Shown here: positions 1,813-64,000 of the stretch, one piece after another | How positions within the stretch are numbered: position 1 is the stretch's first letter | Layout: each line of letters starts with the position of its first letter | NCBI GenBank assembly: GCA_018816525.1 | Contig: JAHIVV010000012.1 | Coordinates: forward strand, 2,253 to 66,252 | Direction of reading: 5' to 3' | Source: Elusimicrobiota bacterium | GTDB taxonomy: Bacteria; Elusimicrobiota; Endomicrobiia; CG1-02-37-114; XYA2-FULL-39-19 | Length of the DNA: 64,000 nt | Translations under genes and position numbers: made by a program | The notes under the pieces: model-generated | Database searches by the model: none | What the model saw: the letters and a program-made list of their open reading frames with translations, nothing else | Told to the model about the DNA's origin: nothing

Positions 1813-2802
1813 ATGGAAGAAGGAATCAGGGAAATCAATGAGAAAGTAAAAAAAGAAAGCATGTTTATCCAGGAACTTACCGCGGAAATCGGCAAGGTAA
1901 TCGTAGGGCAGGACTATATCATTGAAAGACTGCTTATAGGGCTTTTAGGAAACGGCCATATTTTAATTGAAGGCGTGCCCGGGCTGGCAAAAACCCTGCT
2001 GATTAAAACTCTTTCGGACTGCGTCCAGACAAAATTCCAAAGAATCCAGTTTACCCCGGACCTTTTGCCTGCAGATATAATAGGAACGCTTATTTTTAAC
2101 CAAAAAAGCGGCGAGTTTACGGTTAAGAAAGGCCCTATATTTGCAAATATAATTCTCGCTGACGAAATCAACCGAGCGCCCGCAAAAGTCCAGTCGGCGC
2201 TGCTGGAAGCCATGCAGGAAAGGCAGATTACTATCGGTGAAAATACCTATAAACTGGACGAGCCTTTTCTCGTTCTTGCAACACAGAATCCCATTGAGCA
2301 GGAAGGGACCTATCCTCTGCCGGAAGCGCAGGTAGATAGGTTTATGCTTAAAGCAAAAATAACCTATCCGGATAAAGAGGAAGAACGTAAAATTATGGAC
2401 CGGATGACTGTAGGTACCGTGCCGGAAGCAAAAAAAATAATCAGCCCAAAAGATATTATCAAAGCAAGGGAAGTTGTAAACCAGGTTTATATGGACGACA
2501 AAATTAAAAACTACATCATTGACATAGTTTTTGCCAGCCGCAACCCTGAGAATTATAAGCTTCCTGATTTGAAATCAACCATAGCTTACGGCGCCAGCCC
2601 CAGGGCGACAATTTACCTTACAATCGCCAGCAAAGCTTACGCATTCCTGCACAGCCGCGGGTATGTAACGCCGGATGACGTAAAATCCGTAGCAATGGAT
2701 GTGTTGAGGCACAGAATAATTCTTTCCTACGAAGCAGAAGCTGAAGAACTTACGTCTGAAAATGTCGTAAAACAGATTTTGGATAGCGTAGAAGTTCCTT
2801 AA
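1813..2802 (+). CDS. moxR: MoxR-family AAA+ ATPase
   Basis: Walker A GVPGLAKT, Walker B ILADEINRA. GGAGG SD 5 nt upstream. First gene of the Bat operon. Confidence 0.9.
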   Translation: MEEGIREINEKVKKESMFIQELTAEIGKVIVGQDYIIERLLIGLLGNGHILIEGVPGLAKTLLIKTLSDCVQTKFQRIQFTPDLLPADIIGTLIFNQKSGEFTVKKGPIFANIILADEINRAPAKVQSALLEAMQERQITIGENTYKLDEPFLVLATQNPIEQEGTYPLPEAQVDRFMLKAKITYPDKEEERKIMDRMTVGTVPEAKKIISPKDIIKAREVVNQVYMDDKIKNYIIDIVFASRNPENYKLPDLKSTIAYGASPRATIYLTIASKAYAFLHSRGYVTPDDVKSVAMDVLRHRIILSYEAEAEELTSENVVKQILDSVEVP

Positions 2803-2806
2803 GCCC

Positions 2807-3688
2807 ATGATTCCTAAAGAAATTTTAAAACAGATAAAGCGTATTCAAATACGCACCGGCCGGATGGTAAATGATGTGTTTGCCGGACAGTATAGCAGTG
2901 TATTCAAAGGGCGCGGCATGGAATTCAGCGAAGTCCGCGAGTACCAGCCCGGAGATGAAGTAAGAACTATTGATTGGAACGTTTCCGCGCGTTACGGCAG
3001 GCCTTTTGTAAAGAAATTCACCGAAGAGCGCGAGCTTACCATTATGCTATTGGTGGATATGAGCCGTTCCGAGAAATTCGGCACGAAAGATAAAACAAAA
3101 GAAGAAATAGCCGCGGAAATAGCGTCCGTGCTGGCGTTTTCTGCCGTAAAAAATAATGACAAAGTCGGTATGATAATTTTTACCGATAAGATAGAAAAAT
3201 ACATCCCTCCTAAAAAAACAATTACACACATTTTAAGAATAATAAGCGAAATCCTTTATTATAAACCAGAAAACACCGGCACCGATATTACCGTGGCGCT
3301 GGAATACCTTTGCCGGGTCCAGAAAAAAAGAGCTACCGTGTTTATTATTTCGGATTTCATTGATCCGAAAGGTTATGCCCATGCGCTGAGGGTTGCGGGC
3401 AGAAAACATGACCTGGTTGCAATAACACTCACTGATAAAAGGGAAGAAAACATCCCTGCCGGTTATTTCTATGAACTTACAGACGGCGAAACAGGGCAGC
3501 GGGTTGTGATTGATGCAAGAAACCAGGATAAAGTAAATGAATTTATTGAGCTTGCAAGGCAAGAAAGGGTGAAAAAAGAACAGTTGTTTAAGAAATCAAA
3601 AATTGACTTTATCCCGATAAGTACGGACAAACCCTATGCGGATCCATTGTTAAAATTTTTCTATATGCGTGAAAGAAGGTTTAGGTAA
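2807..3688 (+). CDS. DUF58 (VWA-like) protein
   Basis: Conserved QYSSVFKGRGMEFSEVREYQPGDEVRTIDW motif typical of DUF58 proteins encoded next to moxR. Confidence 0.85.
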   Translation: MIPKEILKQIKRIQIRTGRMVNDVFAGQYSSVFKGRGMEFSEVREYQPGDEVRTIDWNVSARYGRPFVKKFTEERELTIMLLVDMSRSEKFGTKDKTKEEIAAEIASVLAFSAVKNNDKVGMIIFTDKIEKYIPPKKTITHILRIISEILYYKPENTGTDITVALEYLCRVQKKRATVFIISDFIDPKGYAHALRVAGRKHDLVAITLTDKREENIPAGYFYELTDGETGQRVVIDARNQDKVNEFIELARQERVKKEQLFKKSKIDFIPISTDKPYADPLLKFFYMRERRFR

Positions 3689-13610: not shown

Positions 13611-14792
13611 ATGAAAATATTACCATTAACAGGAGACCAGGCAGCAGCGGAATCAATGAGGCAGATTAACCCGGATGTTGTCGCTGCATATCCCATTACG
13701 CCTCAAACAGAAATTGTTATGGTTTTTTCACAAATGGCTGCAAACGGCCTTGTGGACACGGAATTAATCCCGGTAGAAAGCGAACATTCTGCCATGAGCG
13801 CCTGTGTAGGATCATCTGCAAGCGGCGTTCGCACGATGACAGCCACTTCTTCACAAGGACTGGCATTAATGTGGGAAATACTTTACATTGCCGCTGGTTT
13901 ACGGCTTCCTATTGTAATGCATACCGTAAACAGGGCGCTTTCGGCTCCTATCAACATTCACGGCGATCATTCAGACGGCATGGGCGCAAGAGACAGCGGC
14001 TGGATACAGATTTACTGCGAAACAGGGCAGGAAGTTTATGAAATGGGAATTATGGCTATTAGAGTTGCGGAACATTCAGATATACTCCTTCCGATTATGG
14101 TCTGCCAGGACGGTTTCATAACCTCGCACGCAATTGAAGGCGTAAAAATACTTGATGATGCGGATGTAAAAAAATATATCGGCGAATACGTCCCGAAAGA
14201 CCCGCTCCTTGATGTAAATCATCCCGTTACTTACGGGCCGATAGATTTACAGGATTATTATTTCGAGCACAGATACCAGCAGGCAGAAGCTATGAGAACT
14301 GCAAAGAAGAAACTTCCGGAAATATTCGCGGAATTCAATAAGTTTTCTGGAAAAAATTACGATTTTATTGAAAAATATAAAATGGATGACGCAGAAGTTG
14401 CGATTTTTGCGCTTTCTTCAACATGCGGCACCACAAGAGTTGTCATCGACGACTTGCGCGAAAAAGGGATTAAGGTTGGAATGATAAAACTTACCGTTTT
14501 CCGTCCTTTCCCGATGGAAGAAGTTGCGGCAGCATGCAAGAATTTAAAAGCTCTGGCAGTTCTTGACAGGGCTGATTCGTGCGCAGCCCAGGGCGGTCCG
14601 GTATTCAATGATGTTTGTACAGCCATGTACACCCTTCTGGAAAAGAAAATCCCGACACTGAACTACATTTACGGTTTAGGCGGCAGAGATATTGATGAAG
14701 CGCAGATAAAAAACATTATCAATGAAACTCTAGAAGCGGCAAAAACAGGTAAAGTAAAGAAATTAATAAATTATTCAGGGGTGAGAATATAA
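13611..14792 (+). CDS. porA: pyruvate:ferredoxin oxidoreductase alpha subunit
   Basis: 393 aa, PFOR domain I/II-like sequence. Operon context. Confidence 0.85.
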   Translation: MKILPLTGDQAAAESMRQINPDVVAAYPITPQTEIVMVFSQMAANGLVDTELIPVESEHSAMSACVGSSASGVRTMTATSSQGLALMWEILYIAAGLRLPIVMHTVNRALSAPINIHGDHSDGMGARDSGWIQIYCETGQEVYEMGIMAIRVAEHSDILLPIMVCQDGFITSHAIEGVKILDDADVKKYIGEYVPKDPLLDVNHPVTYGPIDLQDYYFEHRYQQAEAMRTAKKKLPEIFAEFNKFSGKNYDFIEKYKMDDAEVAIFALSSTCGTTRVVIDDLREKGIKVGMIKLTVFRPFPMEEVAAACKNLKALAVLDRADSCAAQGGPVFNDVCTAMYTLLEKKIPTLNYIYGLGGRDIDEAQIKNIINETLEAAKTGKVKKLINYSGVRI

Positions 14793-25272: not shown

Positions 25273-26049
25273 TTAGTTTGTTTTTGTTGTTTTGAGAACT
25301 CTTGGTTCTGCAATATATTCTCTTGTCAGTTTGCTGGCCGCCGGTTTATCAACAATAATTGTTGTCCTGGGGTGCATCTGGACAACCGTAGCTGGTACCA
25401 TTGCAGTAATCGGTCCCTCAATTGCTTTTGAAATGGCGTCTGCTTTTGTTTCCTTATTCGCAAGCAGAATTAGTTCCCTTGCTTCAATGATTGTGCCGAT
25501 CCCCATTGTAATTGCATATTTAGGGACTTCATCCGAAGTTTTAAAGAATCTTGCATTGTCTTTGATTGTTTCTTTGGCGAGTGTTTTTATCCTGGTCCGT
25601 GACCCTAGCGATGAGCCCGGCTCATTAAATGCAATATGCCCGTTTCCGCCGATGCCTAAAAGTTGTACATCAATTCCGCCGGTTTTTATTATTTCATCCT
25701 CGTACCATTTGCAAAATGCAACGATATCCTTTGCAACGCCGTTGGGAGCGTGAATGGATTCTTTTCTTATGTTAATGTGTTTGAAAAGGTTTTCCCACAT
25801 GAAATAGTAACAACTCTGGTCGTGTTTAGGTTCCAGTCCTACGTATTCGTCAAGGTTGAAAGTTGAAACTTTCGACCAGTCAAGCCCTTCTTCTTTATGA
25901 AGCCTGATAAGTTCTTTGTAGGTCCCGATAGGAGTGCTGCCTGTGGGGAAACCAAGGACTGGTTTAGTTTTTGATTTAATGACATCTGCAATCATTTTTG
26001 CAGCCAGCTTGCTTATCTCATCGTAATCTTTTTTTACCACGACTTCCAT
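25273..26049 (-). CDS. nagB: glucosamine-6-phosphate deaminase
   Basis: GIGGNGHIAFNEPGSS active-site motif. Confidence 0.9.
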   Translation of the reverse strand: MEVVVKKDYDEISKLAAKMIADVIKSKTKPVLGFPTGSTPIGTYKELIRLHKEEGLDWSKVSTFNLDEYVGLEPKHDQSCYYFMWENLFKHINIRKESIHAPNGVAKDIVAFCKWYEDEIIKTGGIDVQLLGIGGNGHIAFNEPGSSLGSRTRIKTLAKETIKDNARFFKTSDEVPKYAITMGIGTIIEARELILLANKETKADAISKAIEGPITAMVPATVVQMHPRTTIIVDKPAASKLTREYIAEPRVLKTTKTN

Positions 26050-26061
26050 ATATTACCTCCT

Positions 26062-26100
26062 CAATACTCCGTGTTACTCGCTTGAAAGAGTACGGAGTAT
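26062..26100 (-). promoter_or_regulatory. conserved SD-adjacent hairpin element, copy A (nagB leader)
   Basis: mRNA sense ATACTCCGT-ACTCTTTCAAGCGAGT-AAC-ACGGAGTAT immediately 5' of GAGGAGGTAATATATG. Flanked by a 12-bp direct repeat ATATTACCTCCT (26050-26061 and 26099-26110). Confidence 0.5.
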
Positions 26101-26132
26101 ATTACCTCCTGGATACCCTAGTTTCGACCAAT

Positions 26133-26161
26133 ATATTATACTTAAAATCGACAAATGTCAA
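26133..26161 (-). promoter_or_regulatory. sigma70-type promoter for nagB
   Basis: Minus strand TTGACA (26156-26161), 17-nt spacer, TAATAT (26133-26138). Confidence 0.5.
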
Positions 26162-36912: not shown

Positions 36913-36924
36913 TACAACCTCTTT

Positions 36925-36963
36925 AATACCCCGTGTTAGTCTCTTGGAAGACTATGGGGTATT
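36925..36963 (-). promoter_or_regulatory. conserved SD-adjacent hairpin element, copy B (intercistronic, upstream of the phosphoesterase gene)
   Basis: mRNA sense AATACCCC-AT-AGTCTTCCAAGAGACT-AACAC-GGGGTATT followed by AAAGAGGTTGTAATG. Confidence 0.5.
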
Positions 36964-36967
36964 CCCT

Positions 36968-37507
36968 TTATCTTCCGTAGAACTCGTAAATATCTATTCC
37001 GTTTTTATTAAAATGTTCAAAAAAGTGCATTAAGAGTTTTCGTGTTGTATACACATCTGCCAGTGCCCTGTGTTTGTTCTTTGGGTTAATCTTATAATAA
37101 TCCGCCAGGCTCTGCAGTTTGTTTGAAGGAAATTTAAAAAATTTCCTTGCCAGGAGCAGTGTGTCCATTACCGGGTTATCAGGAGCGGGTTTATTTAATA
37201 GTGAAAGCTCCTGCTGGAGGAATTTCATGTCAAACGGCACGTTGTGGCAGACAATTATTCTATCGGAAAATAATTCTAAAATATTATCCGCAAGGTCATG
37301 AAAACGGGGGGCATCTTTTACCATTTCGTCGGTTATTCTGTTTACCATGCTTGCTGCAGGGTGAATGGGCTGGAGGGGGTTAACCAGGCTCGAAAAGGAT
37401 TTCTTGATTTTGAAATTATCACAGCACAAGATGCCTATTTCGCAGATTCTATCCCCGTTTGTAGGGCTCAACCCGGTAGTTTCCACATCAAAAAACACCA
37501 TTTTCAT
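36968..37507 (-). CDS. DEDDh 3'-5' exonuclease (DNA polymerase III epsilon-like)
   Basis: Exo I motif FFDVETTGL and later DEDDh motifs. TATAAT box 7 nt upstream of the ATG suggests a leaderless transcript. Confidence 0.8.
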   Translation of the reverse strand: MKMVFFDVETTGLSPTNGDRICEIGILCCDNFKIKKSFSSLVNPLQPIHPAASMVNRITDEMVKDAPRFHDLADNILELFSDRIIVCHNVPFDMKFLQQELSLLNKPAPDNPVMDTLLLARKFFKFPSNKLQSLADYYKINPKNKHRALADVYTTRKLLMHFFEHFNKNGIDIYEFYGR

Positions 37508-60102: not shown

Positions 60103-60816
60103 TTATTTTCGGGGTACCATAAAACTACCTACAAAATCAATAACTTTTTCAATCTCATTTAAATAAGAGTTGAACAAAACTTCTATCTCAACTTTTTGTG
60201 CCGCCTTGTCGCCTTCCTTAATTTTAGAAACAGTTATAAAAGGTTCAGTATTAATTCTTACCTGCTTGGATAACATGCTTAAAGCGTCAATTTTTTTCGG
60301 CGGCGGTACCTGGCCGGTTAAGCGTAGGACATTCCTGAAAAGAACAAGAAAAGTTGAAATTGAGTTTATCAACAATTCTTTGATTTCTGATTGTTTGCCT
60401 TTAGTTGCCATAAACTCTTGGCAAAGTTTGAGGTATTTGCTTTTAAGCTCGTGTTCGCACTCATGGCGCAGGTTTGAAGAAACAATTTCCATGTTAACAA
60501 AGGGGTTTTCGCCGTAAAGGATTTTGTGATGCTCTTTCATATCGAGGAATTCTATGGGAAAAACGTCAAATGATTCCTCGAATTGATTGCAGGTAAAGAT
60601 GACTGGTACAGAATTATTGCTTTTTATCCACTTGTTCACAGGTTTTTGAAGTAATTTTAGTTCAGTAAATCCAAAATTTTCCAATGTAAGCAGTAAATTA
60701 TAGTCAGAACGTTTTTTTACCGCCTCTCCGCTTGCCTGGGACCCGTAAAGTACTATTGATTTTAGGTTTGAACCCAGTGTGTTTTTTAGTTCTTCAACAA
60801 ATTTTGTAAGTTCCAT
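60103..60816 (-). CDS. nucleotidyltransferase-fold protein (minimal NTase with GS...D motif plus helical C-terminal domain)
   Basis: IVLYGSQASGEAVKKRSDYNLLL resembles the Pol-beta NTase hG[GS]x9-13Dh[DE]h motif with the second acidic residue replaced by N. Likely start is ATG 60814-60816 (SD AAAGAGGTG 4 nt upstream), not the TTG at 60837 used by the track. Confidence 0.4.
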   Translation of the reverse strand: MELTKFVEELKNTLGSNLKSIVLYGSQASGEAVKKRSDYNLLLTLENFGFTELKLLQKPVNKWIKSNNSVPVIFTCNQFEESFDVFPIEFLDMKEHHKILYGENPFVNMEIVSSNLRHECEHELKSKYLKLCQEFMATKGKQSEIKELLINSISTFLVLFRNVLRLTGQVPPPKKIDALSMLSKQVRINTEPFITVSKIKEGDKAAQKVEIEVLFNSYLNEIEKVIDFVGSFMVPRK

Positions 60817-60829
60817 TGTCACCTCTTTC

Positions 60830-60866
60830 ATACCCAATGCCAGTCGCTTGGAAGACTATTGGGTAT
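60830..60866 (-). promoter_or_regulatory. conserved SD-adjacent hairpin element, copy C (intercistronic, TPM to NTase gene)
   Basis: mRNA sense ATACCCAAT-AGTCTTCCAAGCGACT-GGC-ATTGGGTAT followed by GAAAGAGGTGACAATG. Confidence 0.5.
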
Positions 60867-60884
60867 ATTTTCCCCTCCATGTTT

Positions 60885-61874: not shown

Positions 61875-62001
61875 AGATCCGAAATGGCAAATCCCATGAA
61901 AATGGGAGACGCAAAGTTACAGGACTAAAGGTAAATGATTTAGAATCAGACCTATGCTCGCCGGACTGTCGAGAATGCTGGAAGCGCTTTCCTTTTAAAT
62001 T
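61875..62001 (+). ncRNA. candidate c-di-GMP class I (GEMM) riboswitch with terminator-like expression platform
   Basis: GGCAAA (61885-61890); hairpin TCCCAT-GAAA-ATGGGA with GNRA tetraloop (61891-61906); near-invariant GACGCAAAG (61907-61915). Tetraloop-receptor-like CUAAAG ... CUAUG downstream, then GGAAGCGCTTTCC stem (61979-61991) plus TTTTAAATTT. Confidence 0.55.
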
Positions 62002-62107: not shown

Positions 62108-64000
62108 ATGAAAACCAGAATTTTTATTTTGCTGGTACAGTTATTTCTTTTCTGCGCGCAGGTTTCAGGCAGGGTGGGTGATGTGCAGATGAAGAGTGAC
62201 CATTCGTGGTATCCCGGCGAATTGGCTTGTTCTACCTTTGACCGTCTTTTTGCTTTTCAGTCACAAATATACACGAGGACAACAGGAAGAACAACAGTGT
62301 CTGACCAGGATAAGGCGGTGGCTTCCTGGTTTTTCAGAAACATATATTACTATCACGCTTTTGAAGGTCACGAGGACCTGGGTTATACTACTGTTGGCGC
62401 CACTCCCCATTTTAATGATGATTACTGGAAAGGGCTTTTTGCTTATGGACACGGTGAATGCGCGCCAGGCCATAACCAGATGACTGCAGAAATGGAATAT
62501 AAATTAGGCCACTGCAGGGCCAGGCAAACCGCAGTTGGTGGACACTCGTCTTTTGAGGTATGGTTAACAGGCACGGGTTATGGTTCAGGCAACTGGGCAG
62601 TAATGAATTGTGATCAGGGCACCGTTGTTTTTGATACGTCCACTTATACTTATATGCTTGGTCTGCACAAAGTTGTTTATGAAGATCAACAAAGTAGCGG
62701 TACTAATTACAATAATTATTCAAAGTATTCCTCTAATGCAGCGCCCAATGCAAATCAAGGTTGGTATAAAAACAGTATGTCAAGTTGGTACAGTATCAAT
62801 TTTGTAGGATATTGCAGTGGCTACCCGAGCGTTCCTCCGGTGGTAGAGTTAAGAAGCGGTGAGAAATTAAGGAGGTATCTTAAACCTGGTTTAGCTGATG
62901 GCAACACATATGTTTTTTTTGGTTATAATCAAGTATTGGCTGGCGTGGGTAGGGGGCCTGTCAGGGATGCCACCTGGTGCAACCAGCCGGATAAGATGTA
63001 CAGGGCAACTTCCGGTACTGGCAGTGATTATTCAAGAGGAATATATGGTAACGGTGTTTATACATATACTCCAAATTTTTCTGATGATTCTTACAAAGAA
63101 GGGGTAATCAGCGAAGATACAGGTTCTGTAACTTTTTATTTTTGCACGCCGTATGTTATCGGAGGGAGGCCTGCGCTGGCACGCAGGAATCAAAACGATA
63201 GCGGTGATTTATATCCATTTATGGTTGATTATGCAGGCGCCACGGAAGGTTTAGTAATTACAGGCAGCACTGTTGGTTGCACTGTCCAGGTTTCTTCTGA
63301 CAATGGAAATAGCTGGGCCTCAGCCCAGACCCTTTCAAATAGTTTGGATTTAACAGATTATGTAAAAGGCAACCACTCATATTTTTTGCGGTTTAACACA
63401 GCCGCTAATAACTTAAAAAGTAAAAATCTTACAATAAAGACCGTTACCCAGTGTAACGAGCGGCTAATACCGCATCTAAAGGACAATGGTTCAACGCTTA
63501 CATACCAGGCGTCGGGTAAAGCGGTTTTTAATGCTGGTCCTGGCAGGAAGCAGGCGCAGAAATATATAATCAGCGGCGGTTTTAACACTTCAGGAATAAC
63601 CATGGAAATTCCTACGCCGCACGGAGAAAAGATACTTGAAGTCTATGCTTCTGCGCTGGTAGGGTCAGGGGTTCCACCAAACACCTCTTGTATTTATAAA
63701 ATAGATTATTCCGTAAACAATGGTACGAGCTGGGAGTCAATAGTTGACAACTGGCAGATAGTTCGCAGAGGTTGGGAACCGAGTGATTTTCTATCAACCA
63801 GTTTTTACTATGGTAATAAAGATATTTCATCTAAAAATGCCGATAGTGTCAGAGTCCGGTTTTCTAATAATGGAGAAAGGGAATACAAGAGAGCGGAAGT
63901 ATATCTTGTTTATGAAAGCGCAGTGAATTCTCCTCTGTCAGTGAGATTTAATTATACTGACACTACAGGTAATCATACTGCAGAGAATACCTATCCTGCA
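62108..64000 (+). CDS. large secreted Gly/Tyr/Asn/Ser/Thr-rich protein, 3' end beyond the window (not in ORF track)
   Basis: Continuous open frame from ATG 62108 to the window end (>630 codons, translated by hand with no stop). Signal peptide MKTRIFILLVQLFLFCAQVSG. SD TAGGAGAATAGG upstream. Aromatic/Gly-rich beta-type composition. Confidence 0.7.
   Translation, partial: MKTRIFILLVQLFLFCAQVSGRVGDVQMKSDHSWYPGELACSTFDRLFAFQSQIYTRTTGRTTVSDQDKAVASWFFRNIYYYHAFEGHEDLGYTTVGATPHFNDDYWKGLFAYGHGECAPGHNQMTAEMEYKLGHCRARQTAVGGHSSFEVWLTGTGYGSGNWAVMNCDQGTVVFDTSTYTYMLGLHKVVYEDQQSSGTNYNNYSKYSSNAAPNANQGWYKNSMSSWYSINFVGYCSGYPSVPPVVELRSGEKLRRYLKPGLADGNTYVFFGYNQVLAGVGRGPVRDATWCNQPDKMYRATSGTGSDYSRGIYGNGVYTYTPNFSDDSYKEGVISEDTGSVTFYFCTPYVIGGRPALARRNQNDSGDLYPFMVDYAGATEGLVITGSTVGCTVQVSSDNGNSWASAQTLSNSLDLTDYVKGNHSYFLRFNTAANNLKSKNLTIKTVTQCNERLIPHLKDNGSTLTYQASGKAVFNAGPGRKQAQKYIISGGFNTSGITMEIPTPHGEKILEVYASALVGSGVPPNTSCIYKIDYSVNNGTSWESIVDNWQIVRRGWEPSDFLSTSFYYGNKDISSKNADSVRVRFSNNGEREYKRAEVYLVYESAVNSPLSVRFNYTDTTGNHTAENTYPA

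Follow-up and report, generated by a model that had tools for sequence, protein, structure and literature searches.

The leader of nagB in the 64,000-nucleotide stretch of DNA analyzed here (the window) carries its ribosome-binding site (RBS) twice, once on either side of a small hairpin. An earlier note on this DNA proposed either that the repeat records the insertion of a mobile hairpin or that the hairpin controls which of two Shine-Dalgarno (SD) sequences is used. Comparison of the locus with related contigs and with other copies of the hairpin supports the interpretation of the nagB repeat as an apparent insertion-generated duplication of the RBS, a scar rather than a two-SD switch. We conclude that the hairpin at nagB, copy A, is probably an insertion of a 35- to 37-nt imperfect palindrome from an undescribed Elusimicrobiota family whose members land at RBSs in the sense orientation. 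The locus comprises the following features.

25273 to 26049, minus strand: nagB, glucosamine-6-phosphate deaminase, 258 aa (PF01182)
26049 to 26061, minus strand: downstream RBS copy AGGAGGTAATATA, in which the SD AGGAGG is followed by 6 nt of spacer and the first base of the ATG
26064 to 26100, minus strand: hairpin copy A, 37 nt, sense ATACTCCGTACTCTTTCAAGCGAGTAACACGGAGTAT (55.8 bits sense, 17 bits antisense)
26098 to 26110, minus strand: upstream (5') duplicated RBS copy AGGAGGTAATATA, with no start codon in range
26113 to 26118, minus strand: the word GGGTAT, just 5' of the upstream repeat, matching the 3' end of the family hairpin
26133 to 26161, minus strand: nagB promoter-like site TTGACA-17-TAATAT, conserved in contigs L012 and L015

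Both positions reported for a 12-bp direct repeat bracketing the hairpin were confirmed, with ATATTACCTCCT on the plus strand at 26050 to 26061 and 26099 to 26110 of the window sequence; the exact repeat is actually 13 bp long (26049 to 26061 and 26098 to 26110, sense AGGAGGTAATATA). It extends further to 16 matches in 18 positions (TATccAGGAGGTAATATA versus TATtgAGGAGGTAATATA) by taking in GGGTAT at 26113 to 26118. This word, with which the family hairpin also ends, may represent microhomology or a relic. A GGGGTAT also lies outside the hairpin in the metagenome-derived contig L010 (3075 to 3081, plus strand), 3' of the third hairpin copy there, and such extra-hairpin words could be relics of older copies or insertion microhomology. 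The last 3 nt of the upstream repeat (ATA, 26100 to 26098) double as the start of the hairpin, which in its best placement overlaps the upstream ATATTACCTCCT (26099 to 26110) by 2 nt. The possibility that the repeat is simply a common SD-context word, raised in the earlier note as a test, was not borne out: a search of the 64-kb window for ATATTACCTCCT allowing one mismatch returned just these two matches (0.29 expected by chance), the repeat has no other occurrence in the window or across ∼400 kb of related DNA, and among 42 fetched loci the sense word AGGAGGTAATAT was confined to six contigs with the same nagB leader.

The downstream copy is indeed the nagB SD and spacer, directly before the start codon ATG at 26049 to 26047 (minus strand), so that the repeat duplicates the nagB RBS as previously claimed. 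In mRNA sense, the leader reads promoter ...GGGTATCC-AGGAGGTAATAT-[hairpin]-TG-AGGAGGTAATAT-ATG, and it is identical in six contigs (NCBI MAGs, ENA, and Logan) carrying a 100%-identical NagB. Based on the start-proximal SD being unpaired in both single-sequence and consensus folds, we infer that the downstream copy, at its native spacing, is the predicted working nagB RBS. AUG, GUG, and UUG are all absent within reach of the upstream SD, and that copy is likely a relic or a decoy SD. The effect of the hairpin on nagB is probably small, because the working SD is single-stranded at native spacing in the modeled folds.

Copy A is one of eight distinct members of a hairpin family, three in the window and five in metagenome-derived contigs (three in L010, one in L011, and one in L012), at least one of which comes from an Elusimicrobia relative. 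L010 and L011 came from a degenerate-pattern scan of metagenome contigs, and the five copies outside the window were then identified with a covariance model. True members score 52 to 61 bits in sense and at most 21 bits in antisense, and everything else scores below 11 bits. The other two window copies are as follows.

36926 to 36962, minus strand: hairpin copy B, between genes for an RNase_T-family exonuclease and a YfcE-like phosphoesterase
60830 to 60866, minus strand: hairpin copy C, between genes for a TPM-domain protein and a nucleotidyltransferase-like protein

Copy A has a 9-bp outer stem, a 4-bp inner stem set off from it by a 3-nt bulge on the 3' side, and an 8-nt loop, UUUCAAGC, with a folding energy of −14.9 kcal/mol (z = −5.5); the same layout recurs in all copies, with energies of −13 to −17 kcal/mol. 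The outer stem, ATACNCCNT/ANGGNGTAT, forms 9-bp terminal inverted repeats, and the element contains no ORF. Across the eight copies, 97.1% of stem cells are paired, compared with merely 26 to 48% in slid registers, and 9 of 13 pairs show compensatory change on both sides, a value reached by none of 500 shuffles. The loop CUUCCAAGNG is near-invariant, reading C-UUCCAAGN-G with its closing pair. Since compensatory changes keep the stem paired, the hairpin appears to be under selection as a structure, and the loop as a sequence. The invariant loop in turn implies recognition by some factor, so the hairpin would be read in trans by a candidate mobilizing enzyme or RNA-binding protein. A consensus fold of the eight copies with 25-nt flanks contained no conserved pairing beyond the hairpin and left the downstream SD unpaired.

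No further member turned up in broader searches. A scan of 185,579 GTDB representative genomes with TANTCTTYCAAGNGANTNNCANNNNGTAT returned only three chance matches lacking the hairpin, and two looser patterns run against viral contigs gave no score above 22 bits. With filters off, models R1 and R2 detected neither additional nor degenerate copies across the window and ∼180 kb of relatives, and candidate hairpin relics 5' of the genes at 13611 and 49652 were not convincing. E-value scans of the copy A leader and of L010 against Rfam gave chance eukaryotic matches only. At the gathering threshold, the sole Rfam match in the window is a c-di-GMP-I riboswitch elsewhere (61876 to 61973, plus strand; 61.4 bits, E = 1.4e-9), upstream of a 95-aa ORF (62196 to 62483) with no Pfam match.

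Several structural identities were considered for the hairpin and set aside. It lacks the U tract of an intrinsic terminator. By eye, it shows none of the tandem G.A pairs that a K-turn would have beside the bulge, and its 8-nt, C-G-closed loop does not fit a T-loop or anticodon-loop mimic; a pseudoknot between the loop and the upstream AAGGAA, again judged by eye, would have too short a linker for the 13-bp span. Covariation for pairing of the loop with the downstream SD is absent.

All eight copies are co-oriented with their flanking genes and lie with the hairpin 3' end 12 to 16 nt before a start codon, although these orientation and position statistics represent ∼6 independent loci, as three of the eight known copies sit in one L010 operon. 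Every copy also has a free SD between hairpin and start codon and a second SD-like run just 5', in which the last bases of the purine run are usually AAT(AT), abutting the AC of the stem. Copy A is in a leader; the others lie after the stop codon of a preceding gene and ahead of the SD of the gene that follows. The downstream genes are functionally unrelated. Within the window, they are nagB (A), the YfcE-like phosphoesterase gene before ileS (B), and the nucleotidyltransferase-like gene before lemA (C); for the remaining copies, they encode a NifU-like protein, a Cys-rich peptide, the product of the gene following it, a family-9 glycosyltransferase, and a sugar nucleotidyltransferase. The L010 copies occupy three successive intergenic gaps and differ in their stems, and nowhere else were copies seen as close together as in this stretch (2559 to 3069, plus strand). 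The products of the operon are a Fur-like regulator, a flavin reductase-rubredoxin fusion, the NifU-like protein, and the Cys-rich peptide of 44 aa. GC skew is positive on the plus strand over the whole window (1 to 64000), yet copies A to C and their genes all lie on the minus strand; three copies do not suffice to tell a replication-strand bias from a gene-strand bias.

Position close to start codons has a practical consequence. Mechanical ORF calling places starts (GTG, TTG, or ATG) inside the hairpin at window position 60837 and L010 position 2867, giving proteins of 244 aa rather than the real 237 aa after copy C and 52 aa rather than 44 aa after L010 copy 2. Annotation pipelines may mis-start genes after these hairpins, and the family accounts for double SDs and odd start-codon calls in these MAGs.

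Relatives with empty sites were found for all three window loci. At nagB, the leaders of L012 (83% NagB identity) and L015 (81%), compared as the earlier note had proposed, are syntenic and have one SD and no hairpin. If 49 nt are taken out of the window leader, 34 nt remain downstream of the −10 element, close to the 36 nt in L012; an exact empty allele of the nagB site was not found among these nearest relatives, which are ∼17 to 19% diverged in NagB. The copy B site is empty in L018 (Elusimicrobia RIFOXYA2_FULL_40_6; phosphoesterase 83% identical), which reads TAG-AGGTTGTA-ATG with a single SD. The window reads TAA-AGGGA-[37 nt]-TAAAGAGGTTGTA-ATG, a clean 47-nt gap relative to L018 with the coding flanks aligned. 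At the copy C site, L021 and L022 (86% identical) have TAA-AAGGAGAGTAAC-ATG, with a 12-nt spacer and a single SD, in place of the 68-nt intergenic spacer of the window, and the hairpin is also absent from L024 (70% identical). A 99%-identical strain contig, L039, ends 4 nt before the copy B site, and a look-up with ribosomal protein L34 returned the same species only.

The empty sites are the decisive evidence for insertion. Presence and absence alone give no polarity, and a repeat-hairpin-repeat arrangement is prone to precise deletion, so the arrangement might instead be ancestral, with the hairpin deleted in relatives through slippage between the direct repeats on either side of it. This would, however, require at least six losses in place of three gains, since at each site the hairpin is missing from two relatives of increasing distance (L012 and L015 for A, L018 and L019/L020 for B, and L021 and L024 for C), and three gains in the window lineage are more parsimonious. 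The closest relative, moreover, has no copies in ∼11 kb against three in the 64-kb window. We consider ancestral presence followed by loss very improbable.

That close relatives lack the element at the sites orthologous to A, B, and C alike also counts against a host cis-regulatory RNA, whether it acted as a two-SD switch, as a standby site, in coupling, or as a 5' stabilizer after intercistronic processing. Constant transcription in sense next to an SD, covarying stems, and an invariant loop would all suit such a role, and SD-like runs can stabilize mRNA without initiating translation, as does the STAB-SD of cryIIIA. Yet the genes that follow the copies are not related in function, pairing never involves the working SD and is not conserved past the hairpin, no start codon follows the upstream SD, and Rfam offers no match; we regard regulation of this kind as improbable. 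In particular, the proposal that the hairpin chooses between two SDs is not supported, given an upstream SD without a reachable start, an unpaired proximal SD, and orthologues that lack the element. A riboswitch, an RNA thermometer, and an SD-sequestering leader were likewise rejected: the SD is not occluded, orthologous leaders lack the hairpin, and there is no gene-specific association.

The flanks of the other two window copies, B and C, were delimited as follows.

36913 to 36925, minus strand: copy B downstream flank TAAAGAGGTTGTA
36918 to 36925: TAAAGAGG, downstream of copy B
36963 to 36970, minus strand: copy B upstream flank TAAAGGGA, a stop codon and SD-like run, imperfect duplicate of TAAAGAGG
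60817 to 60829, minus strand: copy C downstream flank GAAAGAGGTGACA, the working SD and spacer (ATG at 60816 to 60814)
60867 to 60884, minus strand: copy C upstream flank AAACATGGAGGGGAAAAT, including the SD-like GGAGGGG at 60878 to 60872

At copy B, the SD and spacer downstream of the hairpin, AGAGGTTGTA, match the L018 empty site exactly, and the working SD is native for that reason. The SD-like GGAGGGG noted earlier 5' of the copy C hairpin is present, and the copy C flanks match at 9 of 11 positions (GAGGgGAaAAT versus GAGGtGAcAAT). Together with the first AT of the hairpin, the upstream flank of copy C reads AACAT[GGAGG]GGAAAATAT, compared with AACATGGAAAATAT in L021, where this sequence comprises the spacer end, the start codon, and the first codons; the window equivalent differs by a 5-nt insertion, GGAGG. 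Similarity this high was reached in 54 of 5,000 shuffles. The copy C upstream flank looks like a retained ancestral start region. The gene following copy C begins MELTKF rather than MENILESF as in L021. Its ATG lines up with what was ancestrally a TTG codon, and the gene may have been re-started by the insertion; the duplicated segment may here reach ∼22 nt and span the start codon. In the alignment of window positions 60814 to 60884 (minus strand) with L021 positions 2330 to 2380, the old start region is kept 5' of the hairpin without the old SD.

Elsewhere, the L012 copy has AAAAGGAG exactly on both sides, and the L011 flanks match at 8 of 9 positions (AGGTAATAT versus AGGTAACAT). AGAGG-type SDs are common in this genome, so flank resemblance is partly just SD consensus, and similarity within a copy clearly exceeds that between copies for A and L012 only. 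L010 copy 1 and the L011 copy share an identical 3' flank, GAAAGAGGTAACATG, before unrelated genes, and the element could in these cases carry its own SD. Duplicated lengths are 12 to 13 nt at A (perfect), ∼8 to 15 nt at B, 8 nt at L012, and up to ∼22 nt at C, suggesting that the length is not fixed among sites. The mobile-hairpin insertion with target duplication envisaged in the earlier note is supported by the dispersed family, the empty B and C sites, the hairpin-free nagB leaders of two relatives, and the uniqueness of the repeat word; a classical target-site duplication of fixed length was not recovered, nor was the exact empty nagB allele.

A MITE-like miniature transposon would account for the locus in conventional terms, the outer stem serving as terminal inverted repeats and a transposase making a staggered cut of ∼12 to 13 bp to leave an ordinary target-site duplication. 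The 9-bp terminal repeats and the 12- to 13-bp flanking repeat at A are both perfect, filled and empty sites are observed, and the conserved loop suggests recognition by a protein. Some IS4-family transposases yield duplications of ∼11 to 13 bp. The duplicated length is nevertheless inconstant, from ∼8 nt at B and 8 nt at L012 to 12 to 13 nt at A and up to ∼22 nt at C, and neither strict sense orientation nor a fixed distance to the start codon is expected of a cut-and-paste element. The window encodes no transposase, and a 37-bp element is smaller than MITEs usually are (Delihas 2011, PMC3184786). The sole IS-like end seen belongs to a DUF4372 IS-like gene in L040 (MAG GCA_043819315.1, contig 52), tried as a parent element and rejected, as its end, CGTGTGTCCAAATTAGG, is unrelated in sequence. 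Based on these discrepancies, we think a MITE-like origin unlikely. The DUF4372 gene (L040, 1 to 600) abuts TTAATAACATG, and the junction corresponds to window position ∼45999 in the region of an M23 peptidase gene, a strain-level insertion or rearrangement.

Under the favored reading of copy A as a palindrome inserted at an RBS, an ancestral nagB leader ending ...CCAGGAGGTAATAT-ATG would have received the hairpin, with the SD and spacer (12 to 13 nt) becoming duplicated on both sides. The start-proximal SD would still drive nagB translation, and the distal copy would be a relic without a start codon. The repeat would be perfect at A because the event was recent, the upstream copies at B and C would have decayed, and the element would have multiplied in one Elusimicrobiota lineage.

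How the element is copied is a separate matter, for which we tentatively propose short homology or template switching through its SD-like arms, a step read solely from the anatomy of the junctions. The SD region of the target would anneal to the SD-like arms of a donor. On reaching ...AAT(AT), the nascent strand would switch from the target to the identical 5' arm of the donor, copy the donor hairpin, and come back to the target SD via the SD-like 3' arm of the donor, so that the segment between the two switch points becomes duplicated. Such a switch would explain the sense orientation, the RBS position, the left junction (AAT(AT) followed by AC), and the variable duplicated length, which at ∼8 to 22 nt fits short-homology copying better than a fixed staggered cut. 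The resemblance of the native nagB GGGTATCC-AGGAGGTAATAT to both arms of the element is also consistent with template switching.

Strict conservation of the loop is not required by template switching and, under either that scheme or a staggered-cutting transposase, points to a protein partner. A Pfam search of ∼60 window ORFs detected no transposase, reverse transcriptase, HUH nuclease, or RAYT. The element might instead home to translation-initiation regions, with a dedicated factor reading the CUUCCAAGNG loop and the 3' bulge and insertion rebuilding the RBS on the 3' side; we consider this doubtful. If true, the homing element would be a portable hairpin-plus-RBS insulator, able to re-start genes at new codons, an outcome for which copy C may be an instance.

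To our knowledge, no 37-nt element that occurs only in sense and only at RBSs and that duplicates the SD region has been described. It resembles the REPs of Enterobacteria, Pseudomonas, and Stenotrophomonas in being a dispersed, noncoding imperfect palindrome of the same size class with an asymmetric bulge, transcribed within operons, its hairpin kept by compensatory change. REPs are ∼35 bp long (range, 21 to 65 bp) (PMC3184786); the eight copies of this 37-nt palindrome are likewise all intergenic or in a leader. However, REPs are found in either orientation, frequently grouped into inverted clusters (BIMEs), and favor gene 3' ends and convergent genes, whereas here all eight copies are in sense, single, 12 to 16 nt 5' of a start codon, and flanked by duplicated SDs. 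REPs also have GTAG beside the stem in some species, are linked to RAYTs, and have no described target duplication. Their copy number is above 100 per genome; the 64 kb here contain 3 copies. Neither GTAG nor a RAYT was seen with this hairpin (RAYT by Pfam among ∼60 window ORFs).

Like the MITEs Correia, RUP, and ERIC, the element is noncoding, with terminal inverted repeats, flanking direct repeats, and filled and empty sites (B versus L018, C versus L021 and L024, and nagB versus L012 and L015), and effects of MITEs on the expression of neighboring genes are a further likeness. MITEs, however, are ∼100 to 400 bp long with a fixed short duplication (e.g., TA), unlike a 37-bp element that is one hairpin over its whole length, has a variable duplication, is confined to RBSs, and has one orientation. 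No parent IS with matching ends was present in the window. With MIRUs, it shares intercistronic operon gaps, orientation with respect to genes, presence on polycistronic mRNA, filled and empty sites, and short direct repeats (PMC3184786). MIRUs, in contrast, are 40- to 100-bp units, often in tandem, with small ORFs overlapping the ends of neighboring genes; the units here are single hairpins without an ORF, as sense frames run into stops or lack a start codon.

Neisseria REP2 and Borrelia IR are, as here, dispersed immediately 5' of genes and combine an RBS with stem-loops (PMC3184786), but they are much longer and have their own promoter, RBS, and ATG, whereas no promoter is carried here and the SD at nagB and at copy B is the gene's own, duplicated or retained. 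The element thus shares features with REP, MITE, MIRU, and REP2/IR and falls within the definition of none (PMC3184786). If it proves to be genome-wide, it would offer a natural experiment on how much extra structure and how many decoy SDs bacterial leaders tolerate, a possible case of a repeat that spreads through short homology and not through a transposase, and a marker for typing strains and lineages of uncultured Elusimicrobiota.
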